From an uncultured Methanosarcinales archaeon (GTDB lineage Archaea; Nanobdellota; Nanobdellia; Woesearchaeales; CAXGTL01), in assembly GCA_964535955.1 (NCBI GenBank), contig CAZHVK010000002.1, positions 8,122 to 72,121 of the forward strand: a stretch of DNA of 64,000 nt, given 5' to 3'. Numbering within the stretch: position 1 is the first letter of the stretch; every line of letters begins with the position of its first letter. The position numbers and the translations under genes are program-made. This document shows positions 21,996 through 47,468 of the stretch, piece after piece. The notes beneath the pieces are model-generated. The model saw nothing but the letters and a program-made list of their open reading frames with translations. It did not search any database and was not told the DNA's origin.

Positions 21996-22122
21996 GTGGG
22001 GATGCCGGAGTGGCCAAGTATCTGGTAAAGATAGGCTAAACGGGGCAGACTCAAAATCTGCTAGCTTAGTGCTTACGGGGGTTCGAACCAATAATTATAT
22101 TGCGAAAGTCCCTCTCCCCACA
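21996..22122 (+). tRNA. tRNA-Leu(CAA) with two non-canonical introns (D-loop 22018-22039; T-loop 59/60 22088-22108)
   Basis: Acceptor GTGGGGA/TCCCCAC; anticodon arm GCAGA-CTCAAAA-TCTGC; long variable arm; both inserts form BHB motifs (GGCC/GGCT and TTCG/CGAA central helices). Confidence 0.92.
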
Positions 22123-22262
22123 TTATCTTTTCTTAACTTATATTATGTGCTATACATATAATATATCTTATATATATACTACAATAGAAAAGCATATAAA
22201 TACCTAATTTAATCCTAAATATATAAATAATAATTAAAAAAATCAAGGGGGATTGATTATAT

Positions 22263-23006
22263 ATGAGACTTACTTTAGCAGAACCAAAATACCTTAAAGA
22301 TAGCATAACAATTATTTCTGGCTTAGTAAATGAAGCCACATTTAAAATAAGACAAGAAGCAATAGAACTAGTTGCAATGGATCCAGCAAATGTTGCAATG
22401 ATTATATTTAAACTATTGTCAAGCAGTTTTACAGAGTATGATGTTAAGAATGAAGTAGAGATTGCAATAAATCTAAACAATTTTAAACAAATTTTAAGAA
22501 GAATAAAACCAAATGATATGTTGACTCTAGAATCACATGAAAACAAGCTAAAAATCACTCTAAAAGGTGACACAAGAAGAACTTTCTCTTTACCAATCAT
22601 AGAATTAGACGAAAGAGAACAAAAAATACCAGATTTAACATTTAACACACAAATAAGAATAAACTCAGCTACATTTAATGAAGCAATTGAGGATGCAGAT
22701 ATTATTGCAGAATCTGTTTTATTATCAGCAGAAGCTGACAAATTCTCAATAAATGCAGAAGGTGATTTATCAAAAGTAAACATTGAGATTAAGAAGTCAG
22801 ATTCAACAAATATAAGCACTACTTCAGCAGAAAAAATAAAAGCAAAATATTCAATTGAATACTTGAAAAAGATGATTGTCGCATCAAAGCTTTGTGATGA
22901 AGTCATGATAAACTTTAGCAAAGACTATCCATTAAAACTAGAATACAAAGTGATTGACAAGATGATGATGAATTTTATTCTAGCTCCTAGAGTAGAGAAT
23001 GATTGA
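22263..23006 (+). CDS. pcn: PCNA DNA polymerase sliding clamp
   Basis: AMDPANVAM, KYSIEYLKK, DYPLKLEY, FILAPRVE. Confidence 0.96.
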   Translation: MRLTLAEPKYLKDSITIISGLVNEATFKIRQEAIELVAMDPANVAMIIFKLLSSSFTEYDVKNEVEIAINLNNFKQILRRIKPNDMLTLESHENKLKITLKGDTRRTFSLPIIELDEREQKIPDLTFNTQIRINSATFNEAIEDADIIAESVLLSAEADKFSINAEGDLSKVNIEIKKSDSTNISTTSAEKIKAKYSIEYLKKMIVASKLCDEVMINFSKDYPLKLEYKVIDKMMMNFILAPRVEND

Positions 23007-23189
23007 TTGAATATACTACTCAGAAGTGAATAATATCGAAACATTTATAAACCTAGTTCTACTTCTCTATATAAATAAAGTATAAGTCATAAGAAGGGGT
23101 TCTTTAGATTAATTACACAATTAAGGGGATAAACTATGTTTCAAAATCTTTAGATTTTGAAGCTGCGAATGAGACAGAGGCGAATGAGT

Positions 23190-26100
23190 ATGAATACACC
23201 ACAAAAAATAGACATAACAATCAATGATCTAATTGATACTATCATAAGATCAAAAGCAAAAAAACCAGAAACAATCAAAAAACACCTAGACCAAGACAAG
23301 ATAAGAGGTAAATTAGCAACTATTTTTGGTCAAGACTATCTAAATAGAACAATAGAAACAATTAAATCTGATTCTAAAGACAAATTAAAAGAAAAAACTG
23401 ATGATGATGGTGACTTGTACTATGATGAAGATGATGTAATAAGACAAATTGAAAGTGATATTGAAAAGATAAGATACACAACAAGACCAACAGGCATAAG
23501 ACCAACATTAGACCAATTAAGAGATTATGTAAACAAAGCAATTAGCCACAGAGCCTGGGATTTATTAGACAAAATATTAAGCTTGTCAGAAGAAGGTGAA
23601 CTAGAACCAAAAGCTGTTCAAAAAATGGCACTAGACAATATTATAGATGGAGATGATGATTCATATGTATTATTTACAAATAAGTTTGGTGAAGTTGATT
23701 TTACAAAAGATGTTGTCATACCAATTTATGATGAACTAATAGAAGAAGAAAATTATATTAAGCTCCAAAGAATAAAAACAGAAACAGGAATTCCTGTTCC
23801 ACAAGATTCATGCCAAGAAAAATATGAAGAAATAGTTTTAGATGACAAATTTTCAAAAATAGATGAATTGTTTAGTGCAAGTGGTGTACAACCAGAGCTG
23901 ACAAAAACAATGAAAAATAACATAATTCAAAGACTAAAAAAACAAGGATTTCAAGGAAAAATATGTGAAAACCGTTGGAGAAACATAGAAGCAGAAGAAG
24001 ATGAAATAAGTTCTTTAGAAAATTATTTTGAAATAAGTAAACAAACAAGATTCATAAGAAAACTTCAAGAAACTGCATTAAGCAATGATTATATAGATAA
24101 TTTCTTAAGATTATATAATATAACTACACACAAGATATCAGAAACAGTTCTTAATGATGGATATAAAAGATTATCGGAAGAATATGAAAAAGATAAAGCA
24201 ATAGACGAAGATGAAAGTCAAGGTAATGAAGAAAAACAAGAAATCAAAAGAGATAGATTAGAAGAAATTCTTAGAATAATAAAAACAACAAAAACAATAA
24301 AAACAAAGAAAATAGCTCACAAGATTTACAATAAATTACTAAAAGAACAAAGATATAAAGAGATAGAACTATTGCAAAAAGACATAAACATAAAACCTAA
24401 ATTTGATAAACAAACAATTGAACACAGATTAATGCAATTATGTGATTCTTCAATACATAGAAGAGACAAATTTAATATGAATAAATTCTTATCATTTGCA
24501 GACATGGTAACTGAAACAGGATTTGAAATACCAAGAACATATATTGACCAAGCATGTTTTAATCATCTTGATCACAAAGGAAGAGCATTTGAATCAATAG
24601 AAAAAGTAAATAAAGTATATAAAAAATTCAATCTAGAACCACATGAAAGTGTTAACTCATATAAAATCATGTGTTTGATGTGGGAATTAGATTCAAAAAT
24701 TAAGAGAAAAGAAACAGAATATAGTAAAAAAGAATATCAAAGAAAGATTTCACCACTTGAACCAATAAACAGATTCAACACAACCATGTATAACAAATAC
24801 AAAACCTCTGTTAATTCATTGGTTAAAAAATATATCAAAGAAATGTCTCAAATAGACAAAACAAAGATAAATAAAAAGGTTTTTGAACAACACAATCATG
24901 AAATGCAAAAAGTATATGAAAGATGTCTAGAATTACTTATAGTCCAAGCATCAAAAAATGAACAATCTCTAGTAAAAGTTGATAAATTAGAAAAACAAAC
25001 AGGAATAAAAATAAAAGATAGAACAATCAGCGACGCAATAAGGAAATTTATAGAAAAAAATTATAGGAATATTGAAAACCCAGAAAACATAATAAAAACA
25101 ATCAACACAAGAACAGACATAAACATAGATTTAGAACAACCATTTTATTATATTCCTGGAATGAAAGCAAATGATACACTTACAGACAAAATAGGGGGCC
25201 ACCTTATCACAGTACAACAGTATCATGAAGAAAGAACAGATTTAGGAGAAAAATTGAATTATCTCCTTGCTTTTGCAAATAAAGATAAATTTTCAGAAAA
25301 AACACAAGCAGAAATAAGAAAAAAGATGATTGAATATTTAGAAAACGGTCAAACAAAGAAATATGATAATCTGATTCCATTCTTATCAAAAAAAATAAGA
25401 TTCAATAAACAAGAAAAACAAACATTAGAACAAAAAGCAATTGAATTTATTAAAAATAGTAGTTGGGAATATGGTGGACTAAACAGATTAAAAAGATTTG
25501 ATTGCATTGCCTCAAGAGCAAACATCAAACCAAAAATACAACAACAAGAATTAAATGAATTAATAAAACAATATTTTGACAAAAGCAATTCAAACAATGC
25601 ACCAACAGATATTTCAAAAAGATTCAATCTAGTTCCAGATGAAAAACAAATAAAAGACAGATATGTTTATTTACTTGAAAAAAAAGAAAAATATGATTGG
25701 CCAGATAAATGGTATGTAAATGATGCAACAAAACAAGTAGAAAAACTAAGAAAAGATACAGGTGTTAAACTAGATAGAGATTATATAAAAATATTTATAC
25801 AAACATGGTTAAATAAACAAGATTATTACAGAGCAAAAGAATATATTAAATTATTCACAGAATCATTTGATTTTAGATATTCTGAACAAGAATTACAAAG
25901 ATTATACAATGGAAATGATAATTATGAAATCGTAAATTTACTATTAAATACACACAAAATACCACCTAACAAAGAAAAAGCAGAAGAAATAATAAAAAAA
26001 GTATATAAAAGTGAAAGAGCTTATGGAAGAGATTTAGTAAAAAGTCTAACTCATGATCATAAGATTCAAACACCAGATGAAATAACAGACAATATCAAAG

Positions 26101-26570
26101 AAAGCATAACATTTTATCTTGAAAAAAGAGAGATTATCAATTTGATTCCAATAGCATATGAATTACACAACATATATAATAAATCAGACATAGTGTCTAA
26201 ACAACAAGCAGAACAAATAATCTCTGAAATAGGTTATTTATTCCAAAAAAGAACAGAAGACATAACAAGATCATCTTTAAATGCATTAGACATATCATAT
26301 ATCTATGAAAAAGCAAATGCTCAAGACAAAGCAATTGACTTTGCAACACAATTATTCAAAACAGCATTTGACAAAGAACTTTATAAGAATAATATCTATA
26401 GAGGATATGTATTTTGCGCAATCACAGGTGCAAAACCAGACTTAGATCAAGAAAAATTAGCAGAACTTAAACATGATGCACAATTATCAGGAAAATATCA
26501 ATACACATTTGGAGCAGAACAAAGACAAGAATATATAGAAATGCTAGACAAATGGGTTTCAGGTGAATAA
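23190..26570 (+). CDS. Large hypothetical helical-repeat protein (TG[IV]K-type repeats)
   Basis: Long ORF with recurring ETGIPV, SGVQPE, ETGFEI, QTGIKI, DTGVKL motifs; start uncertain (23157/23184/23190). Confidence 0.75.
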   Translation: MNTPQKIDITINDLIDTIIRSKAKKPETIKKHLDQDKIRGKLATIFGQDYLNRTIETIKSDSKDKLKEKTDDDGDLYYDEDDVIRQIESDIEKIRYTTRPTGIRPTLDQLRDYVNKAISHRAWDLLDKILSLSEEGELEPKAVQKMALDNIIDGDDDSYVLFTNKFGEVDFTKDVVIPIYDELIEEENYIKLQRIKTETGIPVPQDSCQEKYEEIVLDDKFSKIDELFSASGVQPELTKTMKNNIIQRLKKQGFQGKICENRWRNIEAEEDEISSLENYFEISKQTRFIRKLQETALSNDYIDNFLRLYNITTHKISETVLNDGYKRLSEEYEKDKAIDEDESQGNEEKQEIKRDRLEEILRIIKTTKTIKTKKIAHKIYNKLLKEQRYKEIELLQKDINIKPKFDKQTIEHRLMQLCDSSIHRRDKFNMNKFLSFADMVTETGFEIPRTYIDQACFNHLDHKGRAFESIEKVNKVYKKFNLEPHESVNSYKIMCLMWELDSKIKRKETEYSKKEYQRKISPLEPINRFNTTMYNKYKTSVNSLVKKYIKEMSQIDKTKINKKVFEQHNHEMQKVYERCLELLIVQASKNEQSLVKVDKLEKQTGIKIKDRTISDAIRKFIEKNYRNIENPENIIKTINTRTDINIDLEQPFYYIPGMKANDTLTDKIGGHLITVQQYHEERTDLGEKLNYLLAFANKDKFSEKTQAEIRKKMIEYLENGQTKKYDNLIPFLSKKIRFNKQEKQTLEQKAIEFIKNSSWEYGGLNRLKRFDCIASRANIKPKIQQQELNELIKQYFDKSNSNNAPTDISKRFNLVPDEKQIKDRYVYLLEKKEKYDWPDKWYVNDATKQVEKLRKDTGVKLDRDYIKIFIQTWLNKQDYYRAKEYIKLFTESFDFRYSEQELQRLYNGNDNYEIVNLLLNTHKIPPNKEKAEEIIKKVYKSERAYGRDLVKSLTHDHKIQTPDEITDNIKESITFYLEKREIINLIPIAYELHNIYNKSDIVSKQQAEQIISEIGYLFQKRTEDITRSSLNALDISYIYEKANAQDKAIDFATQLFKTAFDKELYKNNIYRGYVFCAITGAKPDLDQEKLAELKHDAQLSGKYQYTFGAEQRQEYIEMLDKWVSGE

Positions 26571-26572
26571 TA

Positions 26573-29002
26573 ATGCCAGGATTTGGATTAGGTTTGGGTC
26601 TACAAATGCAAACAAGTTGTCACATGCAGTTACAATGTGGTTTACAGTTACAACTAACATTAGCACAACCAACAGACCCTGATGCATTCAGACCAGAAGG
26701 AGAAATAGAACACATTTCTCAGCATGAAATCCTTGAACAATTAATAGAAAAGATTGATAACAAAGAATTCTGCGACAATATTTATTTTGGCTTAGAGATC
26801 AACAGGACAATATTTGGCCATTCTCTTGAGACAAGATTAGGATATTTTGGTAAAGATATACAACAACTTATGGAATTTTATGATAGTAATGAAGAATCAA
26901 CAAAAAACCTCCTGCATATATTAGGCTCAAGAAAAAAAGCACAAATACCACAAAATGTAGAAGATGATGAAATTAATGAAAGACAAGAGATAATACAAAA
27001 ACAAACACCTGGTGTTGTTGCTCATGCATGGAACAACATAAACAAGTCATATTATTTTAAAAAAGAAAAAACAAACAAACAAATATTCAATTTCTTAGCA
27101 TATCTTAATCAAACAGAAGCTGACATTGCTGTTGGTATTGAAAACCTGTCGAAAGTAACAGAATTAAAAAACCAAAGACATTTAGTAAAAAAAACATTTG
27201 ACAAGATAAAATCATATGCTCAAACAGATACAAGACTTATAACATTTAGTAAAAGTATATTATGCCCTATTGTAAAAGCATTAAAACAAAATAAAGAAAA
27301 ACTAACAACAAATGAATCAGAATTATTATACAAAAACATAATAGAATATCTTTTCATGCTTGACCAAGAATTAAGAATAGGTGACACTGTAGAAAAAATA
27401 GCTGATTCAATAAAAGAAAATGGGATAAAAAAACTTCTTAATCAGAAGATTCCAATTCCATTACAAACTTATCTAGAAAATATACAGCCAAACAAAAAAA
27501 CACAAGACAAGATAGTCAACTTATTCAATGAAAAAGAATTTAAACAAGGAAGAGAATTGCAAAGAAAAATTTACAAAGGATTTTCAGCATTAGAAGAACT
27601 TGATAAAGGAAAACAAATTCTGGAACACATAGTAGAAAACACACCAACATCAAAAATATTATCTAGTATTTTATTAAGATTATATCTTGTCCACCACGAA
27701 CCTGATTTTGAATACAATTTTCAACTAGAGAATCATAAAAAAATAATAAGAAACCTAAAATTTCAATTAGTAGACAAAAGCATAAAAAGATTAAACCTTG
27801 ATGATGATACATTAGAAAAATATCTTCAAAGATTAGAAACAGATGACAGATTTCAAAGAATAAGTGGAATAATCACAAAACTTGCAAGTTATAAACATTA
27901 TCAAAATTCTCAACAATTAGAATTATTAAAAGAGATCACAGAACAAGAACTTGATAATAATTTCAATAAATGGAGATATTCTCATGACAAAGCACAAGAA
28001 CAATTAAAAGTACTAGGTAAAGATATAGATGAATGGAAAAATAATACACAAGTTACAAGAATAGTAGGAAAAATAGAAAAAGCTCTCAACACGCATGTAG
28101 AATCTGTTAAAAACATGCTACCAACAATATTTACAATATATAGAGACCATTATGGTAATGAATTTGATGAACCAGATGAAGATGACTTAAAACAACAAAT
28201 ATCTGATAATGAACAAGAATTAAAAACAGGAAATTTGTCAAAAAAACATAAAAAACAAATAGGATATAAGACTTTTTTATTAAGAGAACGTCTGACTTAC
28301 TTAGAATTCATAAACAGCCTAAATCATCTTGATATAAACAATTACACAGACATATTAAATAAAGCACAAGAGATCTTAAAAAAGAAATCAAAAAACCCTG
28401 TATATCAAAATATCCAATGTGTTAAAGAAACACTAGACCAACCAGAATATAGAAATTCAAGAAAAATAATAGTAAGAGAGACAGATGATCTTGAAACAAT
28501 GCTAAGATTCGGTGAAATTCCAGTATCACATTGTCAAAATTGGAAGAGTGAAAGTTCATATAATACATCATTATTAAGCTTTGTTGCAGATGCAAATAAA
28601 AAACTTTACCATATTATAAATGGTGAAGACAAAGCAATTAGTATGACTATAGTAAGATTAATAGATTGGTATGATAACCCTACAATCTTAGCTGAAAATG
28701 TGTATGCAAGAGAATGGTCAGAAGATTATGGTATTGCATTATTCTCTAGCTTAGCAGAAAAAGCATATTCCATATATGAGGAAACAGGCAAACAAGTAAG
28801 AATTGCAACAAATGATTCAAGACTAGAAAAAGCAATGGAACAATTTGCTGAAAAATATGAAATAGAAGTATTTAAAGACACTATTAAAACAATACCTCCT
28901 GAAAGCAAAAACACTAAAGAATACTATGATTTTAGTCATAGAACAGATAAAAAATATATAACAGCAAATGTCAAATATATCTGTTTTGGTGAACAAGAGT
29001 AA
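26573..29002 (+). CDS. Large hypothetical protein with Gln/Leu-rich N-terminus and conserved-looking C-terminal domain
   Basis: Starts 2 nt after the previous stop; C-terminal ETDDLETMLRFGEIPVSHCQNW...DANKK...ENVY. Confidence 0.75.
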   Translation: MPGFGLGLGLQMQTSCHMQLQCGLQLQLTLAQPTDPDAFRPEGEIEHISQHEILEQLIEKIDNKEFCDNIYFGLEINRTIFGHSLETRLGYFGKDIQQLMEFYDSNEESTKNLLHILGSRKKAQIPQNVEDDEINERQEIIQKQTPGVVAHAWNNINKSYYFKKEKTNKQIFNFLAYLNQTEADIAVGIENLSKVTELKNQRHLVKKTFDKIKSYAQTDTRLITFSKSILCPIVKALKQNKEKLTTNESELLYKNIIEYLFMLDQELRIGDTVEKIADSIKENGIKKLLNQKIPIPLQTYLENIQPNKKTQDKIVNLFNEKEFKQGRELQRKIYKGFSALEELDKGKQILEHIVENTPTSKILSSILLRLYLVHHEPDFEYNFQLENHKKIIRNLKFQLVDKSIKRLNLDDDTLEKYLQRLETDDRFQRISGIITKLASYKHYQNSQQLELLKEITEQELDNNFNKWRYSHDKAQEQLKVLGKDIDEWKNNTQVTRIVGKIEKALNTHVESVKNMLPTIFTIYRDHYGNEFDEPDEDDLKQQISDNEQELKTGNLSKKHKKQIGYKTFLLRERLTYLEFINSLNHLDINNYTDILNKAQEILKKKSKNPVYQNIQCVKETLDQPEYRNSRKIIVRETDDLETMLRFGEIPVSHCQNWKSESSYNTSLLSFVADANKKLYHIINGEDKAISMTIVRLIDWYDNPTILAENVYAREWSEDYGIALFSSLAEKAYSIYEETGKQVRIATNDSRLEKAMEQFAEKYEIEVFKDTIKTIPPESKNTKEYYDFSHRTDKKYITANVKYICFGEQE

Positions 29003-29480: not shown

Positions 29481-29562
29481 AGTTTTCTTGGTTTTTTCTT
29501 TATTTTTTTATATTTGTATTAATAGCAATCAATCTTAATCATAAATAGAATTCTAAAAAAGA

Positions 29563-29758
29563 TGGGGATGCCGGGATTTGAACCCAGATTTCAACTCCTA
29601 ATATCATACAATACCAGGATCCGTTGGTCTCTTCATCAGAAGCGATAGACCAATAGTTAATCATCGCATTTCTGCTCATCGCTCCATTACTGGAGCCAAC
29701 TATTAAGGACAGATTGTGCTTAAACACAAATCTTCTAGCCAAGTTATACTACATCCCC
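29563..29758 (-). tRNA. tRNA-Trp(CCA) with three introns (D-arm ~29705-29734; 37/38 29629-29689; variable region 45/46 29590-29620)
   Basis: Acceptor GGGGATG/CATCCCC; anticodon arm GTTGG-CTCCAGA-CCAAC; T arm CTGGG-TTCAAAT-CCCGG; the 45/46 intron has a perfect CAAC/GTTG BHB; D-arm boundaries are less certain. Confidence 0.88.
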
Positions 29759-29863: not shown

Positions 29864-30000
29864 TGGGCCTGCCGAGACTCTCATACACCAAAATTATTTT
29901 GATGATTTTGAACTCGGGACCGCCCGATCTCTGAATTGATTATTTATCAGTCGGGTGCTCTAATTGACCAGTATATACTTCCAGTCTAAGCCACAGGCCC
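29864..30000 (-). tRNA. tRNA-Ile(GAT) with three introns (19/20 29964-29980; 37/38 29929-29944; 59/60 29878-29906)
   Basis: Acceptor GGGCCTG/CAGGCCC; anticodon arm CCCGA-CTGATAA-TCGGG; each insert has BHB geometry (GACT/GGTC, CTGA/TCAG, TTCA/TGAG). Confidence 0.92.
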
Positions 30001-30196
30001 AATTGTTTTGTTGCGGGACTGAAGTGAGCGCAGCGAACGGAATGTCGCGCTATCCTGATCGAACTTGATAAAGTTCGCCATGACTCAGCCACAGGCCCAA
30101 TTGTTTTGTTGCGGGACTGAAGTGAGCGCAGCGAACGGAATGTCGCGCTATCCTGATCGAACTTGATAAAGTTCGCCATGACTCAGCCACAGGCCC
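30001..30196. repeat. Perfect 2 x 98-bp tandem repeat abutting the tRNA-Ile 5' end
   Basis: 30001-30098 = 30099-30196; each unit ends in AGCCACAGGCCC, identical to 29989-30000. Confidence 0.95.
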
Positions 30197-30282
30197 ATGA
30201 TTTTGTTTATTAATTATATTAATATATAAGCATATACAATTAATATATAAAAAGAAAAAAACTTATTTTATAAAGCTATCGA

Positions 30283-35624: not shown

Positions 35625-35666
35625 TAGTTTTGTTCACCTTTGTTTTTATTATAATTATTAATATTG

Positions 35667-35712
35667 TCCCTTACATCCTCAGGGGTGGGTGGTCGGGGGT
35701 TAGGAAGGTGGG
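35667..35712 (+). repeat. G-tract dispersed element, copy 2
   Basis: AGGGGTGGGTGGTCGGGGGTTAGGAAGGTGGG in a divergent intergenic region. Confidence 0.85.
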
Positions 35713-35839
35713 AAAATTTCTTTATTTATATATATAAAACCTATTTTATTTATATATATTGTGGTTGTAGAAAAAACAATAAAATAATAACTAAACAATA
35801 GAAAACTTTAAAACCAGCACAACAATCCTGCAAAATAAC

Positions 35840-37111: not shown

Positions 37112-37153
37112 AAACAAACCACAACCCAAGAATTTAGAAAACAAAAAAATACA

Positions 37154-37202
37154 GCCTACCTACTGAACCTGGGTCGGGTGGCCGTGGGCATTACAAGGTG
37201 GG
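37154..37202 (+). repeat. G-tract dispersed element, copy 3
   Basis: GGGTCGGGTGGCCGTGGGCATTACAAGGTGGG between convergent genes. Confidence 0.8.
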
Positions 37203-37206
37203 TCAA

Positions 37207-37767: not shown

Positions 37768-37805
37768 ATTAGAGAAAAGAAAGCATAATCACATTATAAA
37801 ACTTT

Positions 37806-37853
37806 GCCTGCTACCGAGCCAGGTGTGGGTGGTCGGGGGATGGAATTGGAGGG
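37806..37853 (+). repeat. G-tract dispersed element, copy 4
   Basis: AGGTGTGGGTGGTCGGGGGATGGAATTGGAGGG. Confidence 0.75.
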
Positions 37854-37855
37854 AA

Positions 37856-38686
37856 TTAATCAAACACCTTCTTAACATTACCCCAATTCATCTTAACAAA
37901 CTGTTTTGGATCTCTCTTTGACTTTTTCAAAAACTCTAGAGCATCTGTAACATGAGAACTTCCTTTTGGCACTGTTATGCCAAGTTTAGCACTAAGCTTA
38001 GCCAACTGCTGTAATGCAAAGTCTCGTGCAACAATAGAAGCTGCTGCAACTTCGACATACTTAGACTCAGCTTTTGTCACAGCAATTTCACCAACATTAC
38101 AACCAGGATATTTATCAACAACCCACTTTGCTCTGCCAAACTTTGAACTTTGCTTTAGATCGGCATGAACTTCCCTGTGCAGTTTATTCATCAACTTTGT
38201 AAGACCAAACTTATAATCATTATATCTATTTGGTGGAAGACTTTTCACTGAAACCTTGACAAGCTTTCTTATTTCATCTGAATATGCACCAATATCTTTG
38301 TCTTTGATTTTCTTAGAATCCATGACACCAAAAAGTCTAAGATTCTCACGTTCAAGATTATTAGCTCTTACACCAACAACAACAATTCCACCAAAAGTAT
38401 CACCTTTAAGTGCTTCATCACTTCCAATAAAGATTCCTTCTTGCTTAACAAACTTAGTCTTTTTTTGTTCAATAAAACCAGATGATTTCAACAGTTTAGA
38501 ATAATACATAACATTCTCATCTTTTCCTTGCAGCACAAGTTTGCCTGACTTAAACAATACCATGACAATGTCTCTATTTCTTAGGCGGAATGTTTCATAT
38601 TTTGTTTTAACTTCATCTAAACCTAACTTTAATTTTTCTATAAGAAATGCTTTATCACCTTTTTTTATGTTCAGGAAAACTGTCAT
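37856..38686 (-). CDS. rnhC: Ribonuclease HIII
   Basis: N-terminal TBP-like segment (VLFKSGKLVLQG); GSDEALKGDTFG, DSKK, VAAASIVAR. Confidence 0.85.
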   Translation of the reverse strand: MTVFLNIKKGDKAFLIEKLKLGLDEVKTKYETFRLRNRDIVMVLFKSGKLVLQGKDENVMYYSKLLKSSGFIEQKKTKFVKQEGIFIGSDEALKGDTFGGIVVVGVRANNLERENLRLFGVMDSKKIKDKDIGAYSDEIRKLVKVSVKSLPPNRYNDYKFGLTKLMNKLHREVHADLKQSSKFGRAKWVVDKYPGCNVGEIAVTKAESKYVEVAAASIVARDFALQQLAKLSAKLGITVPKGSSHVTDALEFLKKSKRDPKQFVKMNWGNVKKVFD

Positions 38687-39322: not shown

Positions 39323-39389
39323 TCCGTAAGATATATAAACTAAAAAATTAATTATATAGTATTAAGATAATAAAATTTGATGATATAAA

Positions 39390-40127
39390 ATGACTAATAA
39401 TGTAAATATAAAATTAAGTTCAAAAGATAAAATTAAAGGTTTAAAACTACCCAACAATATTTCTAAAGAATTAGCCTATTTATGTGGTGTTCTGATAGGA
39501 GACGGAAGTTTATACATAAGAAAGAAAAAATATGATTATATTATCAAATGTGTTGGTAATCCAAAAAATGAAAAAGAATATTATCATAGAATAATTGCTC
39601 CTTATTTTAAAAAAGTTTTTGGTTTATTACCAGCAATAAAGTTACATGACTCAAATACTACTTTTGGATTTACAATTCATTCTAAATCTTTACTTAAATA
39701 CTTTGAAAAAATAGGATTTTCTATTGGAAAAAAAGACGAAAATTTAGACATTCCTCATTCAATTAAAGAAAATAAAAACCTTTTAATTCCATTTATAAGA
39801 GGGTTATTTGACACTGATGGTTGCATTTGTTTTAAAAAAAAGTATAAGCTTAAACCTTATTATCCAGTCATAAGTGTTTCTTCACAAAGTAAAAAATTAA
39901 TCAAAGAAGTATCAAAAATACTCAAAGAATTAGGATTTAAAATTGTAGAAACATATGATTACAAAGTTAAAGATAAAAGAAATGAAAAAGGATTTACAAT
40001 AATAAACAGAATAGAATTAAATGGTAAAGATAATCTTAGGAAATGGATGTCTACAATTAATTTTTACAGTCCAAAACATTTAGAGAAGATAAAAATTTGG
40101 GAAGAAAATAGCGGGGAGAGGATTTGA
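39390..40127 (+). CDS. Free-standing two-motif LAGLIDADG homing endonuclease
   Basis: LAYLCGVLIGDGSL and FIRGLFDTDGC motifs; no intein Hint ends; 3' end overlaps the tRNA-iMet antisense. Confidence 0.9.
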   Translation: MTNNVNIKLSSKDKIKGLKLPNNISKELAYLCGVLIGDGSLYIRKKKYDYIIKCVGNPKNEKEYYHRIIAPYFKKVFGLLPAIKLHDSNTTFGFTIHSKSLLKYFEKIGFSIGKKDENLDIPHSIKENKNLLIPFIRGLFDTDGCICFKKKYKLKPYYPVISVSSQSKKLIKEVSKILKELGFKIVETYDYKVKDKRNEKGFTIINRIELNGKDNLRKWMSTINFYSPKHLEKIKIWEENSGERI

Positions 40128-40207: not shown

Positions 40208-40307
40208 ATAACCAGGATTCTATATATCAAGAAACCAACCCCATTTATAAATATTACCCAATATATCAGAAATCTTTAAAAACACAAACCAATTCTATTA
40301 ATAACAT

Positions 40308-40425
40308 GTCGAGGTGGCACAATCTGGTACTGCGCCAGCCTGCTATTGCAAGGCTGACAGCTGGTTTCCTTCGGGATTTCGGGGTTCAAATTGATTACAA
40401 TATCATGAAAGTCCCCGCCTCGACG
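40308..40425 (+). tRNA. tRNA-Ser(GCT) with two introns (37/38 40346-40358; 59/60 40391-40411)
   Basis: Acceptor GTCGAGG/CCTCGAC; CCAGC-CTGCTA..A-GCTGG; long variable arm; TTCA/TGAA BHB. Confidence 0.9.
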
Positions 40426-40436
40426 TTTTTATTATT

Positions 40437-41231
40437 CTAAGAACTATCTTCTAAATAATTTCTAACCCTATTATAATCTCTCCAACCATCAACATCAATT
40501 GCAGGTTCTGCACAATCTAGCTTAACCAAAGAAAACCTTGTACCTGAGATGCTTGAGATTACATTTTTAAGGTAATCAAAACTAACATCATTCAATAAAT
40601 ATTTAATCAAAAGTTTAGGAACAGTATAAGGAAACCTAATACACCATGCTAACTTAGTTCTAAACTTTTTCATATTCCTAAGCATGTATGCAGTTTTAAC
40701 ATACTCCTTATTTCTAAAATTATCAACATTACATATCAACATATTACCAGTAACAAAATTACCTTCAACAGTTTTAAAATATTTCTTTTTCACAGCTCCA
40801 TCTTTTTCATACCCATGCAATAAATAATCTTCAACAACAGAAAAAAACAAATCATGATTACCAAAATCATGCTTGCACTTATCTACAAAACAATCAATGT
40901 GTTTTTCTTCTATAAAAGGTAAATCCCCTGTGATAAATAATTTATAATCCTTCTTAGTACCAATAGAATCTAAAATCTCTACACCAATCTCAGCATTATT
41001 CAATATATTTCCATAATTACTAACACCTACAACATTTTTTCCTTTAAAACTTTGATTAATGATCTGTTCTGTTTTTCTCTTACCAACAACCACAACATTC
41101 TTAATATAATTACTATTAACCAATGCTTCAACCACATAGCAAACTATATGTTTATCATTGATCTTTTTCAATGCATTTCTTCCTCTTAACCCTCCTGCCA
41201 TAACAACAGCATCTAGTGTGATATTTCCCAT
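40437..41231 (-). CDS. MobA-like NTP transferase
   Basis: DAVVMAGG, ITGDLP, AIDVD; start moved to MGNIT. Confidence 0.85.
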   Translation of the reverse strand: MGNITLDAVVMAGGLRGRNALKKINDKHIVCYVVEALVNSNYIKNVVVVGKRKTEQIINQSFKGKNVVGVSNYGNILNNAEIGVEILDSIGTKKDYKLFITGDLPFIEEKHIDCFVDKCKHDFGNHDLFFSVVEDYLLHGYEKDGAVKKKYFKTVEGNFVTGNMLICNVDNFRNKEYVKTAYMLRNMKKFRTKLAWCIRFPYTVPKLLIKYLLNDVSFDYLKNVISSISGTRFSLVKLDCAEPAIDVDGWRDYNRVRNYLEDSS

Positions 41232-41340
41232 GTTCTTAGTGATAACTTTTGCATTTATATTGATTTGTATATTATAATAATTATAATAGAAAAACTTTAT
41301 ATATAACAAAACTATTATTAATTAAAACGAGGAACACAAT

Positions 41341-43782
41341 GTGACATATGAAATAGTAATCGGAAGAAATAAACAACAGATCGAACAATATGGTAAATTA
41401 GGAACTATTTTCTTAGCAAAACAATATGTCCAGATGGGTCAGGTCACATCATTAGCAAATGAAGTTTACATGGACATTGCAAGTGCACATGTTGTATTTG
41501 TAGTAGGTAAGAGAGGCTGTATTACAGGTGATACTAAAATATTTACTAATAGTGGATATAAGGATATTAAAGATTTTGATGAAACAAATGACTTAGTAAT
41601 ATCATTTAACAAAAACAAAGAAAGTTTTCAATGGGAAAATGCTAAATTACTAAAATACGACACTAAAAAGAGTGAAGAAATGATCAAAATTCAAAATTAT
41701 GATGGTCAAGAATTAATAATGACAAAAGAACATCCTTTATTAATTAAAGAAAAAGGAAAATTAATCTGGAAAAATGCAGAAAATCTGAAAAAAGGTGATA
41801 TTCTAGTAGGAATTTCAAAAGTTCCAGAAGTAAAGAATGATTCTGAAAGTCTAAGAATTGCAAGATTATTAGGATTTATATTAGCAGATGGAACAATGCA
41901 AGCAAGAAAAGGCAGATTTAAAGATGGTAGAGGGAAATGGTATAATGGGACAAAAAGAAGAGTAAGAATAATAAATGCTTCAGAAGATGTTCTAAAAACA
42001 TCAAAACAAGATTTAGAAAAAGAATTCAATATTACAGCAAAAAGATACAAAAAAAGTAAAGAAAACTGCTATGTTATTGAAACAAAACAAGGGAAAGTTC
42101 TAAGAAAATTAAATAAATTAGGGATTCCACTAGGATTAAAATCTCATAAAATAAGAGTTCCAAAAGTAGTATTTGAAAGTTCAAATAAATTTAAAGCAAA
42201 TTTTTTAAAAGCATTATTTTCTTGTGATGGTTATGTTAATAAAGATGGAAAACATATTGTTTATTATTCAAAATCCAGAAGATTTTTAGAAGATCTTAAT
42301 TTAGTGTTAAATCATTTTAATATTCAATCAACAATAAGGGATAAAATTGTGAAATTAAATGGCAAAATATTTCCTAATTTTCAGCTTTATATTACAGACC
42401 ATAATTCTTTAGAAAGTTTCAAGAAAATAGGATTTACAGATACGACTAAAGAAAAAAAATTAAGTAAACATAAATTCTGGAGAATGAAAAGAAGAAAAAG
42501 AACAAAATATTTTAATAATGATGTATTCGAACAAAAGATTACAAAGGTTTCTAAGATAAAAGGAGTTAAAGAAGTGTATGATTTACAGGTTCTTGAAAAT
42601 AATTCATTCATAGCAAATGGAATTATCTCCCATAACAGCGGAAAATCCTACACAATGGGAGTCATAGCAGAAGGCTTAGCTTCAATGCCAATCAAAGTCA
42701 GAAATAATCTAAGCATTGTGATGCTAGATACAATGGGTGTTTATTGGACAATGAAATATCCAAATAGACAAGATTCAGAAATTCTTAGAGATTGGAACCT
42801 AGAGCCAAAACCACTTGATGTCATAATCTTTACACCAATTGGTTATTATAATAAATATAAAGAAGAAGGTGTTCCAACTGATTATCCTTTTTCAATCAAA
42901 CCTTCAGAATTAAGTATAGTCGACTGGTGTCTTAGTTTTGGTATTGATAGGAATTCAGATCTTGGTGTATTGATAGAACGAGTTATCAATGATCTCGGTG
43001 AGAGAAAAAAAGATTATTCAATAGATGATATAATAAAGGCAATAAAAGATGACACAAAATCAGGGGATAATATAAAAAATGCAGCAGAAAATCGTTTTCT
43101 TAACACAGAAACATGGGGTTTATTTTCAGAACAAGGTGTTAAACTAATTGATTTAGTCAAACCAGGAAAAATAACTATCTTAGATGTAAGTTGTTATGCA
43201 ACTGTTCCAGGTGGTTGGACAATAAAATCTTTAGTAATTGGTTTAGTTGCACAAAAATTATTTATTGATAGGATGAAGCAAAGAAAAACAGAAGAATTTG
43301 CAGACATTGAAAAATCCATCCACTTTTTCTCAGAAAAAAAAATAACAACAATGCCTCTTGTTTGGTTAGTCATTGATGAAGCACATGAATTCTTACCAAA
43401 CAAAGGAAAAACAACTGCAAGTGACGCCCTAATTACAATCTTAAGAGAAGGAAGACAACCAGGAATCTCATTAATCTTAGCTTCACAACAACCAGGAAAG
43501 ATACACACAGATGTAATGACACAATCAGACATAATAGTTGCACACAGACTAACAGCAAAGATTGACACAGATGCATTAGCAGTATTAATGCAAAGTTATA
43601 TGAGAGAAGGCCTTGACAGACAACTAGACAATCTTCCAGGTGAAAAAGGTTCTGCATTAATAATAGATGACCAGAATGAAAGAATCTATCCAGTCCACAT
43701 AAGACCAAGGTTCACATGGCATGGTGGTGGATCACCGATTGCTATAAGACAACAAGTTAAAAAGAATGAGTTTGATTTATAA
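41341..43782 (+). CDS. HerA/FtsK-like (DUF87) ATPase containing an intein
   Basis: Walker A GKRG|SGKS split by the intein; LVIDEAHEF, LREGRQPGISLILASQQP. Confidence 0.9.
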   Translation: MTYEIVIGRNKQQIEQYGKLGTIFLAKQYVQMGQVTSLANEVYMDIASAHVVFVVGKRGCITGDTKIFTNSGYKDIKDFDETNDLVISFNKNKESFQWENAKLLKYDTKKSEEMIKIQNYDGQELIMTKEHPLLIKEKGKLIWKNAENLKKGDILVGISKVPEVKNDSESLRIARLLGFILADGTMQARKGRFKDGRGKWYNGTKRRVRIINASEDVLKTSKQDLEKEFNITAKRYKKSKENCYVIETKQGKVLRKLNKLGIPLGLKSHKIRVPKVVFESSNKFKANFLKALFSCDGYVNKDGKHIVYYSKSRRFLEDLNLVLNHFNIQSTIRDKIVKLNGKIFPNFQLYITDHNSLESFKKIGFTDTTKEKKLSKHKFWRMKRRKRTKYFNNDVFEQKITKVSKIKGVKEVYDLQVLENNSFIANGIISHNSGKSYTMGVIAEGLASMPIKVRNNLSIVMLDTMGVYWTMKYPNRQDSEILRDWNLEPKPLDVIIFTPIGYYNKYKEEGVPTDYPFSIKPSELSIVDWCLSFGIDRNSDLGVLIERVINDLGERKKDYSIDDIIKAIKDDTKSGDNIKNAAENRFLNTETWGLFSEQGVKLIDLVKPGKITILDVSCYATVPGGWTIKSLVIGLVAQKLFIDRMKQRKTEEFADIEKSIHFFSEKKITTMPLVWLVIDEAHEFLPNKGKTTASDALITILREGRQPGISLILASQQPGKIHTDVMTQSDIIVAHRLTAKIDTDALAVLMQSYMREGLDRQLDNLPGEKGSALIIDDQNERIYPVHIRPRFTWHGGGSPIAIRQQVKKNEFDL
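41518..42636 (+). mobile_element. 373-aa intein with LAGLIDADG endonuclease inserted in the P-loop
   Basis: Begins C(ITGDT), block B TKEHP, LGFILADG / LFSCDG, ends VYDLQV...ISHN followed by Ser. Confidence 0.95.
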
Positions 43783-43882
43783 CAGAATATATAATTATTA
43801 CCAACAAGATTATAATATTTTCAAAAATAGAAACCAAAACATATAAATCTATATATACCCCTAAACCAAAACTAAAACCATA

Positions 43883-45094: not shown

Positions 45095-45141
45095 TTTAAA
45101 AAAAATTAAGAAACAATAAAAAATATAACATAGCCTTTAAC

Positions 45142-45177
45142 AGCCACTGGCGGGATGATTGGGGCGGAGCAGGTGGG
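45142..45177 (+). repeat. G-tract dispersed element, degenerate copy 5
   Basis: GGCGGGATGATTGGGGCGGAGCAGGTGGG between convergent genes. Confidence 0.5.
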
Positions 45178-45183
45178 AAATTA

Positions 45184-45501
45184 TCAGCTGATTTCTAAAG
45201 ACCTAAACGAAGCAATAATCACTATTATAAAAAAGATTATAAATGTTGCTCCCCATTCAAGTGCTAATTTTTTTCCTTCAAAACCAAAGTATGTCCACCA
45301 AAGTGCTACTATCAAACCAAGAAGACCAAACATAAAAAAACCTTGCGATAGTGGTATTCTCTTGATTGGTTTTTTAGTTTTTACAATTTTTACTTTTTTT
45401 GGTTTTCTTTTAACAACTTTTTTCTTAGCTCTTGATTTTCTTTTAACAACCCTTTTCTTAATTTTCCTTTTTTTAACAGCTTTTTTCTTTTTCTTAGCCA
45501 T
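45184..45501 (-). CDS. Small membrane protein with Lys/Arg-rich N-terminal tail and two TM helices
   Basis: SD GAGGTGA upstream; MAKKKKKAVKKRK... followed by two hydrophobic segments. Confidence 0.75.
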   Translation of the reverse strand: MAKKKKKAVKKRKIKKRVVKRKSRAKKKVVKRKPKKVKIVKTKKPIKRIPLSQGFFMFGLLGLIVALWWTYFGFEGKKLALEWGATFIIFFIIVIIASFRSLEIS

Positions 45502-45522
45502 GATATTCACCTCTTATTTATT

Positions 45523-45569
45523 CCACCTACTAAACCAAGGGCGGGTGGCCGGGGGTTATGGAAGGTGGG
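45523..45569 (+). repeat. G-tract dispersed element, copy 6
   Basis: CCACCT...AGGGCGGGTGGCCGGGGGTTATGGAAGGTGGG. Confidence 0.85.
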
Positions 45570-45571
45570 TA

Positions 45572-46696
45572 TTATTTTATTTTATACAGATACTTATCAA
45601 TCAATTTTTCAGCTTTTTTTCTTTTTTTCTGATGCTCTGCCAAAAACTCATTTATTCTCTCAATCAATATTAATTTTAACTCACCTGTTAACATAGCACC
45701 AGACTTATAATTATCATGAATTTCTTTTAATTTTTTATCATCAGGTTCAAAATATCTTAACCATTGATAACTAACATCCACATCAGGATTTCCACCCTTT
45801 TTTCTATGCTCTTCAACAGTAGCTTGTCCACCTGAAAAAGCATATTTATTTATTTTTCTTTTAACAGTTTTAGCATCATCAGTTGTTAAGATAGCTTGTT
45901 CAGAACTTGATGTACTCATCTTACCAGTTACACCTACCAATGGAGGCATAAATTTAGAATGTATGATTGCTGGTTTATGATGACCTAGTTTCTCAACAAC
46001 ATCCCTGCTTAATCTAAAATGTGTATCTTGATCAATACCTAAAGGAATCAAGCAAGGCTTATCTTCTTTTCTCAACACATTTGGTAAAAAAACAGGCACT
46101 GTTTGCATTGCAGTATAAAAAATACTCCCAATATTATTTTCATTTGTAAAACCAAATGCAGCTTTTATTGATGAAAAATTAATCTTTTTTGCAACCTTTA
46201 TTGCTTCAGGATACATTATTCCTGCATGAACAGTATCAACCAAAAAATGTGTCTTTTTAGGATCAAAACCAAGAGCAATAACATCTAACATATTATCATG
46301 AGTCCATTTTTGTATTTCATCATAAGACTTTTTCTTATTAAACAAAAATTTTTCATCATCTGTAAATTGAAACCACAGATCAACTTTAAACTTGTCTTGC
46401 AACCATTTAGTAAATATCCATGTTGCTAAATGACCTATGTGTAATGGTCCTGAAGGGCCACAACCAGTATATAAAAAAAATTTATTACCTTTTTCATATT
46501 CATCTAAACACCATTTAAGATCTCTATTGGCAAAAAATATACCTCTCCTAAGAAAAGGATGAACCTCTCCTGCCAACTTATTGATTCTATCCAAGTCATT
46601 TTTAGAAAGCTTCTTTACACCAAACTCATTAATCAATTTATCATAATCTACTTCACCCTGCACTTCATATGGGTTTACCACAAACTTTTTTGCCAT
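45572..46696 (-). CDS. trpS: Tryptophan--tRNA ligase (archaeal type)
   Basis: YTGCGPSGPLHIGH, TDDEK, GIDQD, KMSTS, AFSGGQ. Confidence 0.96.
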   Translation of the reverse strand: MAKKFVVNPYEVQGEVDYDKLINEFGVKKLSKNDLDRINKLAGEVHPFLRRGIFFANRDLKWCLDEYEKGNKFFLYTGCGPSGPLHIGHLATWIFTKWLQDKFKVDLWFQFTDDEKFLFNKKKSYDEIQKWTHDNMLDVIALGFDPKKTHFLVDTVHAGIMYPEAIKVAKKINFSSIKAAFGFTNENNIGSIFYTAMQTVPVFLPNVLRKEDKPCLIPLGIDQDTHFRLSRDVVEKLGHHKPAIIHSKFMPPLVGVTGKMSTSSSEQAILTTDDAKTVKRKINKYAFSGGQATVEEHRKKGGNPDVDVSYQWLRYFEPDDKKLKEIHDNYKSGAMLTGELKLILIERINEFLAEHQKKRKKAEKLIDKYLYKIK

Positions 46697-46776
46697 ATAC
46701 ATTCTTATAGCAGTATTGTATAAAAACCTTTCTAATATTCATTAATTTTATATACATATTATACATAGCAACAAAT

Positions 46777-47307
46777 ATGAGAACCTTTATATCAATATCA
46801 ATACCAGAAAATGTGTCAAAAATAATACAAAATATACAAAACCACTTACCAAGTGAAGATTGCAAACTAAACATAGCAAAAAACCTTCATTTGACATTAA
46901 AATTCTTAGGAGAAATAGATAAAAAACAAGCAGAACAAGTAAAACAAATACTAAAGACAGTTAAATTCAAGAAATTCAACCTAGAACTTGACAAAATAGG
47001 TTATTTCCCAAACAAAGACTATATAAGGGTTGTATGGATAGGTTTCAAAGACAATACACAAGTAAACCAATTACAAAAACAGATTGACAATAAACTTAAA
47101 GACCTCAACTTTTCAGTAGAAAAAAAGTTCCACCCACACATAACATTAGCAAGAGTCAAATTCATCAAAGACAAAGTAATGTTTAAGAATGAGATAAATA
47201 ACATAGAAATTGATAAACAAACCTTCCAAATTACCAAATTTAAACTAATCAAAAGCACACTAACACCTAAAGGTCCTGTTTATGAAGATTTAGCTGAATA
47301 TGAGTAA
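46777..47307 (+). CDS. thpR: RNA 2',3'-cyclic phosphodiesterase / 2'-5' RNA ligase
   Basis: Two HxT motifs (HLTLKF, HITLAR), KSTLTPKGPVY. Confidence 0.93.
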   Translation: MRTFISISIPENVSKIIQNIQNHLPSEDCKLNIAKNLHLTLKFLGEIDKKQAEQVKQILKTVKFKKFNLELDKIGYFPNKDYIRVVWIGFKDNTQVNQLQKQIDNKLKDLNFSVEKKFHPHITLARVKFIKDKVMFKNEINNIEIDKQTFQITKFKLIKSTLTPKGPVYEDLAEYE

Positions 47308-47373
47308 GGATTTCTACAAGGCAGTTAAAAAGAAACCTTTTTAAATGGATTCTAATTCTTATATATAAATAGA

Positions 47374-47468
47374 GGGGCTATGGGGTAGCTTGGTCTATCC
47401 TTTCTGGTTTGGGACCAGACGACCCCGGTTCAAAATGAAATAATATCATGAAAGTCCGGGTAGCCCCA
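47374..47468 (+). tRNA. tRNA-Pro(TGG) with a 20-nt intron at 59/60 (47435-47454)
   Basis: Acceptor GGGGCTA/TAGCCCC; TCTGG-TTTGGGA-CCAGA; TTCA/TGAA BHB; TATA-like TTATATATAAAT upstream. Confidence 0.93.

Follow-up and report, generated by a model that had tools for sequence, protein, structure and literature searches.

Bulge-helix-bulge-framed inserts in all six tRNA genes on a 64-kb stretch of DNA from a putative woesearchaeon

To standard tRNA finders, the stretch of DNA analysed here (64 kb of one contig, 29% G+C, hereafter the window) holds no tRNA gene: ARAGORN run on the unspliced sequence reports none, Rfam gives no tRNA match at gathering score, and in E-value mode nothing relevant appears beyond a minus-strand fragment at 29560-29598 made up of T arm and acceptor. 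Pieces of tRNA are recognisable in its intergenic G+C-rich islands, and deletion in silico of 12 inserts of 13-61 nucleotides (nt) yields six canonical tRNAs with ARAGORN scores of 114.8-120.9. A sequence-only reading of the window had proposed 12 introns in six tRNA genes; splicing in silico and scoring with ARAGORN reproduced its isoacceptors, its intron count and its positions throughout. The genes are these:

21996-22122, plus strand: tRNA-Leu(CAA), exons 21996-22017, 22040-22087 and 22109-22122; ARAGORN 120.1
29758-29563, minus strand: tRNA-Trp(CCA), three introns; ARAGORN 114.8-118.5
30000-29864, minus strand: tRNA-Ile(GAU), three introns; ARAGORN 119.6-120.9
40207-40109, minus strand: initiator tRNA-Met(CAU), one intron, with A1:U72 and G29-31:C39-41; ARAGORN 118.2
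40308-40425, plus strand: tRNA-Ser(GCU), class II with a long variable arm, two introns; ARAGORN 119.4
47374-47468, plus strand: tRNA-Pro(UGG), one intron; ARAGORN 119.4

In all six genes the exons are collinear on one strand within 95-196 nt, a T-tract lies directly 3', and the spliced tRNAs have intact stems and the expected identity elements. The inserts contain no open reading frame (ORF), and no Rfam intron family, group I and group II cores included, occurs within the window. Three of the inserts occupy the canonical position 37/38 and nine lie elsewhere: at 20b/21 in the D-loop, at 19/20, at 22/23 in the D-arm, at 45/46, at 53/54 and, four times, at 59/60. The load is thus 2.0 introns per gene, a figure drawn from six genes only.

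The splicing procedure, modelled on SPLITS, lists inserts framed by a bulge-helix-bulge (BHB) motif, deletes up to three of them and scores the product with ARAGORN; where it proved too strict, brute-force deletions were made without the BHB requirement. With p as the exon end, the frame consists of a 4-bp central helix (H) pairing p-5..p-2 with q-5..q-2, two bulges (p-1,p|p+1 and q-1,q|q+1), an outer helix (h) running from p-6:q+2 and an inner helix (h') running from p+2:q-6. Described in these terms, the inserts are:

22018-22039, plus strand: Leu intron 1, 22 nt, 20b/21; relaxed HBh' (H 4/4, h' 5 bp, no outer helix)
22088-22108, plus strand: Leu intron 2, 21 nt, 59/60; strict hBHBh' (H 4, h 5, h' 5)
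29734-29705, minus strand: Trp intron 1, 30 nt, D-arm 22/23; relaxed HBh' (H 3/4, h' 5)
29689-29629, minus strand: Trp intron 2, 61 nt, canonical 37/38; hBH (H 3/4, h 5), with an 8-bp internal stem
29620-29590, minus strand: Trp intron 3, 31 nt, variable region 45/46; HBh' (H 4/4, h' 11 bp)
29980-29964, minus strand: Ile intron 1, 17 nt, 19/20; strict hBHBh' (H 4, h 3, h' 4)
29944-29929, minus strand: Ile intron 2, 16 nt, canonical 37/38; strict hBHBh' (H 4, h 5, h' 2)
29906-29878, minus strand: Ile intron 3, 29 nt, 59/60; hBH with a weak h' (H 4, h 5, h' 1), nearly strict
40152-40129, minus strand: initiator Met intron, 24 nt, 53/54; relaxed HBh' (H 3/4, h' 5 bp)
40346-40358, plus strand: Ser intron 1, 13 nt, 37/38; hBH (H 3/4, h 6), closed by a GCAA tetraloop
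40391-40411, plus strand: Ser intron 2, 21 nt, 59/60; strict hBHBh' (H 4, h 5, h' 4)
47435-47454, plus strand: Pro intron, 20 nt, 59/60; strict hBHBh' (H 4, h 5, h' 3)

Strict motifs therefore frame the inserts at Leu 59/60, Ile 19/20, Ile 37/38, Ser 59/60 and Pro 59/60, with Ile 59/60 coming close; in Leu intron 2 the outer helix is the T stem itself, and UUCG (nucleotides 54-57) forms one strand of the central helix. The Leu D-loop, Trp 22/23, Trp 45/46 and initiator Met 53/54 inserts take the HBh' form without an outer helix (the Leu D-loop junction reads GGCC[AA|G]tatct..agataGGCT[AA|A]), and Trp 37/38 and Ser 37/38 both take the hBH form with three of four central pairs. The earlier reading had held these inserts to be BHB-type tRNA introns of mostly clean geometry. 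As to type it stands, the BHB register being correct at 12 of 12 junctions; 'mostly clean' is too generous, because about half of the motifs are relaxed and only five or six of the 12 are strict hBHBh'. Several of the 4-bp central helices also pair in competition with stems of the mature tRNA.

A BHB frame is weak evidence in DNA of this composition, since the strict pattern alone matches thousands of site pairs in the AT-rich window. We consequently set aside the motif by itself and relied on the score of the spliced tRNA together with random controls for each junction. When 1064 overlapping 240-nt tiles from both strands were passed through the same splice-and-score pipeline, six gave a match: four tRNA loci were recovered at 118-120 and one background tile at 101.0, which is the highest ARAGORN score in the window outside the tRNA loci (against 114.8-120.9 for the spliced genes). 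The Trp locus was solved incompletely and Ile was missed at the limit on combinations, Ile being recovered in focused runs. For each of the 12 junctions we also drew 200,000 random site pairs of equal length, and the fraction with an equal or better BHB ranged from 1.1e-2 (initiator Met 53/54) down to 0 of 200,000 (Leu 59/60).

The possibility that the inserts arose in the assembly or scaffolding of metagenomic contigs draws what support it has from a 98-nt repeat upstream of tRNA-Ile, whose copy number differs among assemblies (1.1 in contigs L088, L093 and L094; at least 2 in L087, L089 and L095) and within which several contigs break. Five of the six tRNA regions nevertheless recur at 100% identity in three to six contigs assembled independently (samples in ENA, JGI and Logan; the Leu region is uncovered there), which excludes an assembly artefact for those five, and a five-intron initiator tRNA described below is identical in an NCBI metagenome-assembled genome and a JGI contig. 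We regard this explanation as scarcely credible.

To place the window among its relatives, we compared its protein-coding genes. Its ORFs are archaeal, and include PCNA, L37ae, SMC, an intein-containing HerA, RNase HII and Rpb6. PCNA retrieves 80 loci in GTDB species representatives at 63-91% identity, mostly labelled Woesearchaeota, Nanoarchaeota or Nanoarchaeia; among these fall some TPA (third party annotation) bins labelled 'Methanosarcinales', labels that look like mistakes. The named SMC relatives are likewise almost all Woesearchaeota or Nanoarchaeota, with one Thermoproteota label. Judged by its PCNA and SMC relatives, then, the predicted host is a woesearchaeon of the DPANN superphylum. 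The window itself matches scaffold_3 (309 kb) of SUTE22-1_SAMN10231903 and contigs of several other metagenomes. Two relatives proved especially informative: a sister species, GCA_964645705.1 (locus L103; L104 is an independent JGI contig of it, and L008 belongs to the same species as L103), whose SMC and PCNA are 78% and 90% identical to those of the window, which is present in the same JGI sample and which keeps the gene order; and a third species (L007), with a PCNA identity of 91%.

Orthologous tRNA genes in these and other relatives allow the junctions to be read directly. A spliced-alignment search near PCNA recovered 37 orthologues of tRNA-Leu(CAA), four with no intron (L067, L071, L083 and L084), 17 with one, 11 with two and five with three (mean about 1.5), at sites 20-22, 30/31, 37/38, 53/54 and 59/60. 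In the three intron-less genes that we inspected (L067, L071 and L083), GGCCAAACGGG and GGTTCGAATCC run unbroken exactly across both window Leu junctions. The L103/L008 gene has introns at 30/31 and 59/60 and none in the D-loop, where L007 also has none. In tRNA-Ile of L103, the exons are identical to those of the window and the 19/20 intron is missing, so that GACTGGTTAGAGC is contiguous; in tRNA-Trp of the same locus, introns are present at 22/23 and 37/38, the 45/46 intron is missing, with CCAACGGATCTGGG contiguous exactly at the predicted junction, and a 46-nt intron at 59/60 is found that the window gene does not have. In L105, which is more distantly related (SMC 60%), the initiator tRNA-Met gene lacks introns, and its GGTCGGAGGTTCAAATCC reads across the window's 53/54 junction. 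Intron-less orthologues thereby verify five of the 12 junctions (Leu 20b/21, Leu 59/60, Ile 19/20, Trp 45/46 and initiator Met 53/54); at the other seven, relatives carry introns at the same position.

Exons and inserts evolve very differently across these species. The Trp exons are conserved in L103/L008 and L007; about 10 of their 73 positions are changed in L103, where the acceptor stem has undergone a compensatory change from GGGGAUG/CAUCCCC in the window to GGGGGCA/UGCCCCC in L103. Among the inserts, Trp 22/23 is also filled in L103 (H 4/4) and L007 (H 4/4, h' 6) in the same frame, the Trp 45/46 intron of L007 is identical to the window's at 30 of 31 positions, and Ile 37/38 holds a homologous 16-nt intron in L007 and an unrelated one of 21 nt in L103. 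The Ile 59/60 introns of relatives are 20-23 nt long (L103 again included) and unrelated in sequence to the window's. At Ile 19/20, L007 has a GC-rich, structured intron of 89-90 nt whose central helix shows a compensatory change relative to the window (GUCU/GGAC against GACU/GGUC). Orthologues of tRNA-Ser carry three introns in L103 and two in L105, both with 37/38 and 59/60 filled and with unrelated inserts of 14 and 34 nt, respectively, at 37/38. In L097, the tRNA-Pro gene that precedes L37ae is interrupted at 59/60 by 42 nt of unrelated sequence, an intron that still ends in UGAAAG. Introns of differing length and sequence at shared sites thus keep the BHB-critical 3' end, and the comparison indicates that introns are gained, lost and replaced rapidly between sister species whose PCNA proteins are about 90% identical. 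The scan of metagenome contigs for L37ae that yielded the Pro orthologue was swamped by low-complexity patterns and gave only six loci, one of them informative, and a search for tRNA-Ser/initiator tRNA-Met orthologues through a flanking 264-amino-acid (aa) protein found no homologues of that protein. Separately, by eye, the tRNA-Pro(UGG) of a more distant relative (L099, about 1290-1430) appears to lack a T-loop intron and to be interrupted instead by some 70 nt close to the 5' end of its acceptor stem, at about position 3/4 (GGG|...|GCTG).

Several observations weigh against taking the six loci for functional genes whose inserts are removed by the tRNA endonuclease EndA. Six or seven of the 12 motifs are relaxed, with three of four central pairs or with the outer or inner helix missing; the cut sites at Trp 22/23 and Ser 37/38 are the best BHB among near-equivalent junctions; and ARAGORN favours a tRNA-Trp with a long variable arm, at 126 versus 118, if the 45/46 insert is kept. 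The genes could accordingly be real and some of the 12 inserts be mis-delimited or not be EndA introns at all, the obvious candidates being a true long variable arm in Trp, an enlarged anticodon loop in place of the 13-nt Ser insert and a Trp D-arm cut elsewhere; three of four central pairs is all that Ser 37/38, Trp 37/38, Trp 22/23 and initiator Met 53/54 can muster. The relatives bear on each of these points: the Trp gene of L103 is contiguous at the 45/46 junction, the Ser 37/38 site holds unrelated inserts in L103 and L105, Trp 22/23 has all four central pairs in both L103 and L007, and the initiator tRNA of L105 is intron-less at 53/54. Given this, we judge mis-delimitation to be quite improbable.

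The examined portion of the genome is also small, comprising the 64 kb of the window and an extension of about 9 kb (about 73 kb in all), so that second, intron-less copies of these genes may lie outside it, and the decayed first exon in front of tRNA-Ile is evidence that pieces of tRNA can survive in this genome. Were such copies present, the six loci could be decaying pseudogenes carrying random insertions. Decay of this kind sits poorly with the intact stems, identity elements and T-tracts, with a BHB frame around every insert, and with exons that three species conserve, compensatory changes included, even as the inserts turn over. Neither the window nor the L103 locus of 23.5 kb has a single intron-less tRNA, the 9-kb extension adds no tRNA, and the only complete-looking relative seen, the contig of an SMC match, measures about 1.0 Mb, which leaves little room for duplicate tRNA sets. 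We consider it very improbable that the loci are pseudogenes.

The machinery that would act on these genes is likewise missing from the loci at hand. Pfam scans of 40 window ORFs show no EndA, nor does phmmer with a Methanocaldococcus jannaschii EndA as query against all ORFs of the window and 100 loci, and Pfam scans reveal no RtcB within the window or about 650 kb of fetched loci; cleavage by EndA, the joining of the exons, the type of EndA and the order in which introns are removed are proposals made from the DNA. Having weighed these points, we conclude with considerable confidence that the window contains six functional tRNA genes of a woesearchaeon, each with one to three short, protein-spliced introns of the BHB type.

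The position 59/60 stands out among the insertion sites. It is occupied in four of the six window tRNAs, in five of five in L103 and in the Pro gene of L097; in more distant Woesearchaeota, 37/38 dominates and 53/54 recurs. The claim of the sequence-only reading that 59/60 is a preferred site consequently survives within the close clade and fails beyond it, the preference being local. Each of the four window cases, like every relative seen, uses the T stem as its outer helix, pairs U54-U55-C56-R57 with an intron YGAR and has A58-A59|N and AG|U60 as its bulges. The tRNA itself therefore supplies a near-invariant half of the motif, and an intron that ends in YGARAG and contains a small hairpin would be able to move from one tRNA to another. 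At their 3' ends, the 59/60 introns of Ser and Pro are identical over 13 nt (AATATCATGAAAG), of which the motif leaves seven free; this resemblance fits intron transposition of the type proposed for Thermoproteales (PMC4033280) and may reflect it. Orthologous 59/60 introns of the window, L103 and L007 cannot be aligned with one another, and replacement at this site must therefore be fast.

These features suggest a simple route from gene to mature tRNA. Each gene would be transcribed as a single precursor from an AT-rich promoter, ending at the T-tract after the discriminator base, and exon-intron pairs in that precursor would fold as a BHB or relaxed BHB with two 3-nt bulges and a 4-bp helix. 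EndA would cut both bulges, an RtcB-type ligase would presumably join the exons, and the introns would probably be released as circles. At 59/60, where half of the motif is provided by the tRNA, an intron would need only a small hairpin and a 3' YGARAG, such that the invariant T loop could act as a universal landing site; the dominance of 59/60 in this clade may be explained because the T loop is a ready-made half BHB. Relaxed motifs need a broad-specificity EndA in characterised systems, according to PMC4033280 and PMC5829648. The earlier reading had named the same need for Thermoproteales and ARMAN archaea; for the present lineage it is taken from this literature, no EndA having been found in the window or fetched loci. 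The earlier reading also suggested that introns may shield tRNA attachment sites from integrative elements, an idea that PMC4033280 credits to Randau and Soll. Nothing here speaks for it or against it: a search of IMG/VR viral contigs with the spliced 3' ends of tRNA-Pro and tRNA-Ile gave no exact match, and no integrase is found among the window ORFs scanned.

One intron departs from the general pattern of turnover. The 61-nt Trp 37/38 intron is identical at 59 of 61 positions in L103 and at about 57 of 61 in L007, which makes it the best conserved of the set; at 93-97% over three species, its conservation exceeds that of the exons and of the other introns. Euryarchaeal tRNA-Trp introns of the Haloferax and Pyrococcus type hold a box C/D guide RNA, and the present intron resembles them in being a long, structured 37/38 insert with C-box-like elements (GCGAUGA twice, and CUGAUGA) as well as its internal stem. 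Its geometry is unlike that of a guide: box spacing is 1 and 21 nt rather than about 12, no N+5 guide for position 34 or 39 exists, the D-like CUGA is CUUA in L007, and Rfam has no match, and we accordingly rejected a canonical box C/D guide. Because it is so well conserved, the intron is nonetheless likely to have some function beyond being spliced out.

A second unusual element adjoins tRNA-Ile. Tandem Repeats Finder identifies a perfect 98-nt tandem repeat of 2.1 copies at 29989-30197 on the minus strand, including the first 12 nt of tRNA-Ile, with which each unit begins; the remainder forms the 5' leader of the gene:

30001-30197, minus strand: tRNA-Ile 5' leader, 98-nt units each composed of a decayed exon 1 (GGGCCTGTGGCTGAGTCATGG) and a GC-rich element

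The repeat is absent from L103. No hidden tRNA emerges from a unit after all single deletions, no BHB is formed at any rotation that would make it an extra tRNA-Ile intron, and it matches no known RNA family significantly in Rfam; its folding energy is not unusual and it has no match in viral contigs. The unit does align over its full length, at about 70% identity, with exon 1 of the L007 tRNA-Ile together with the 89-90-nt 19/20 intron that follows it, and the hairpins of the two show a compensatory change (GAACUU/AAGUUC in the repeat, GAACCU/AGGUUC in L007). This homology explains the origin of the repeat: the 98-nt leader appears to be a relic of an older exon 1 and long intron. We envisage an ancestral tRNA-Ile composed of exon 1, a long intron and exon 2; in the lineage that led to the window, exon 1 would then have been copied anew to a place beside the 3' splice site, leaving an intron of 17 nt. 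The old exon 1, in which G13 breaks the D-stem, would then have become 5' leader along with its intron, with tandem duplication following later.

The sister species is more heavily burdened than the window. Its initiator tRNA-Met contains five introns, after mature nucleotides 7, 15, 31, 47 and 61, all of them BHB-framed (H 4/4 in four, 3/4 in one; h' 3-10 bp), in a precursor of 208 nt (L103 5860-6067, minus strand) whose exons are identical to the mature initiator tRNA of the window; the same precursor occurs unchanged in the independent contig L104. L103 has 15 introns in five tRNAs in total, or 3.0 per gene on five genes only. In the third species, tRNA-Trp has four introns, including an extra 20-nt D-arm intron, and tRNA-Ile three, both genes lying downstream of PCNA:

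L007 2423-2637 on the reverse complement of a 6741-nt locus (about 4105-4319 in locus plus-strand coordinates): tRNA-Trp
L007 1631-1828 on the same reverse complement (about 4914-5111 in locus plus-strand coordinates): tRNA-Ile

The literature sets these loads in context. PMC4033280 states a maximum of three introns per tRNA gene; PMC8450103 gives 'up to three' per gene, a mean of 0.84 per gene for Thermoproteales and a record of 71 introns in 46 genes for Pyrobaculum calidifontis. For the Asgard Atabeyarchaeia and Freyarchaeia, a 2024 study of complete genomes (Valentin-Alvarado et al.; PMC11291895) reports that 92-95% of tRNA genes have at least one intron, often non-canonical, that more than half have several, and that three genomes hold 228 introns, with up to four per gene in its table. 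The window and its sister, at 2.0 and 3.0 introns per gene on six and five genes, lie above these figures, and the five-intron initiator tRNA exceeds the three or four per gene found in this literature. The earlier designation of this lineage as a tRNA-intron hotspot is well founded, 33 of the 37 Leu relatives carrying one to three introns alongside the loads of L103 and L007. The phenomenon itself is known: in kind these are ordinary EndA/BHB introns, and what is unusual is their load. Nor is the lineage newly recognised in principle, because Kaneta et al. (2018) tied the EndAs of DPANN archaea, Woesearchaeota included, to tRNA disruption.

Put together, these observations permit a broader and more tentative reading, which we hold to be possible and somewhat short of even: that the window, L103/L008 and L007 belong to a clade with the heaviest tRNA-intron load yet described, that mobile T-loop mini-introns drive this load, and that two or more RNAs derived from introns have taken on separate roles. 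Candidates for such RNAs may be the Trp 37/38 intron of 61 nt and a GC-rich element found as the Ile intron in L007 and as the duplicated leader in the window.

The window has other features. A G-rich motif of about 50 nt (consensus CCnCCTAC-n5-CCAGGGGCGGGTGGCCGGGGG-n5-8-GGTGGG) recurs in seven copies, all on the plus strand whatever the orientation of the neighbouring gene, where shuffled sequences lead one to expect 0.7 matches to its core:

19366-19418, plus strand: G-rich motif
35666-35715, plus strand: G-rich motif
37153-37205, plus strand: G-rich motif
37805-37857, plus strand: G-rich motif
45522-45575, plus strand: G-rich motif
50599-50654, plus strand: G-rich motif
61192-61245, plus strand: G-rich motif
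outside the window: G-rich motif at about 4400, 9937 and 16051 in L103, about 196 in L007 and about 3827 in L008

The motif occurs in the two sister species, is missing from more distant relatives and belongs to no Rfam family; RNAalifold gives no convincing consensus structure, and we did not retain it as a structured RNA. One copy lies in frame inside an AAA_18 kinase ORF, where it encodes ...SGVGGRVAGRWA..., and a copy stands beside each of two genes for class Ib aminoacyl-tRNA synthetases of the Trp/Tyr family (18253-19329 and 45572-46702, both minus strand). Several elements related to homing endonucleases are present: a free-standing LAGLIDADG-like ORF (39390-40127, plus strand), whose 3' end overlaps that of the initiator tRNA-Met gene by 19 nt; an intein with a LAGLIDADG domain in HerA (41341-43782, plus strand); and a further LAGLIDADG ORF about 8 kb outside the window (L106 19353-20351). 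Between PCNA and the tRNA-Trp/Ile pair, two large ORFs of 1137 and 809 aa without a Pfam match occupy 23157-29002 on the plus strand. They are absent in the sister species, where the tRNA pair lies about 0.5-0.8 kb from PCNA, and therefore mark a lineage-specific insertion or loss of about 6 kb. Finally, tRNA-Pro is preceded, at a distance of 66 nt, by a LigT/2H-phosphoesterase gene (46777-47307, plus strand) with the fold of 2'-5' RNA ligases and cyclic phosphodiesterases. The substrates of such enzymes are RNA ends bearing a 2',3'-cyclic phosphate, the product of EndA cleavage; the adjacency may be a coincidence.

These genes have practical consequences for the study of DPANN genomes. Since ARAGORN and Rfam find none of six genes in 64 kb, the tRNA counts by which bins are graded, and inferences about 'missing' tRNAs in these reduced genomes, will be badly wrong without intron-aware methods; Kaneta et al. 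(2018) take incomplete tRNA sets to point to undetected disrupted genes (PMC5829648). Three related species with the same exons and different intron sets form a natural series for following intron gain, loss and movement, and the tRNA-Ile locus, with its old exon 1 and an intron turned 5' leader, has apparently been caught mid-change. If the load extends genome-wide, the lineage will test the limits to which a DPANN EndA can relax its substrate requirements, and with them the link between the L3 loop and tRNA disruption.

Among known systems, the split and permuted tRNA genes (those of Nanoarchaeum equitans, the tri-split genes of Caldivirga and the permuted genes of Thermofilum) offer a likeness in their BHB-dependent processing, in the DPANN affiliation of one of them and in the stray 5' piece near tRNA-Ile; we rejected this arrangement because the exons are collinear in all six genes and the tRNA-Ile 5' fragment forms no BHB with the gene. 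Thermoproteales (Pyrobaculum, Thermofilum and Caldivirga), whose EndA is an (alpha-beta)2 enzyme with a Crenarchaea-specific loop, share the short BHB or relaxed introns, the many non-canonical sites (D-arm, 45/46, 53/54 and 59/60 among them) and the presence of several introns per gene; the present lineage differs in belonging to a DPANN phylum, in its 29% G+C and in carrying 2.0-3.0 introns per gene, on six and five genes, against a mean of 0.84. Atabeyarchaeia and Freyarchaeia also have multi-intron genes, although they are unrelated in lineage and no five-intron gene is listed in the accessible part of PMC11291895. Further counterparts, as given in PMC5829648, are ARMAN-1 and -2, with an epsilon2 EndA, and Pacearchaeota and Woesearchaeota, with an alpha4 EndA bearing the L3 loop: all are of the same superphylum, and Woesearchaeota RBG_13_36_6 is of the same phylum-level group. 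Such L3-loop alpha4 enzymes were reported there from several DPANN lineages and tied to increased tRNA disruption. Where that survey, in the part accessible, applied tRNAscan-SE 2.0 to one woesearchaeal genome and gave no gene-level description, the present analysis resolves the insertion sites, the BHB classes, the junctions and the turnover of the introns gene by gene.

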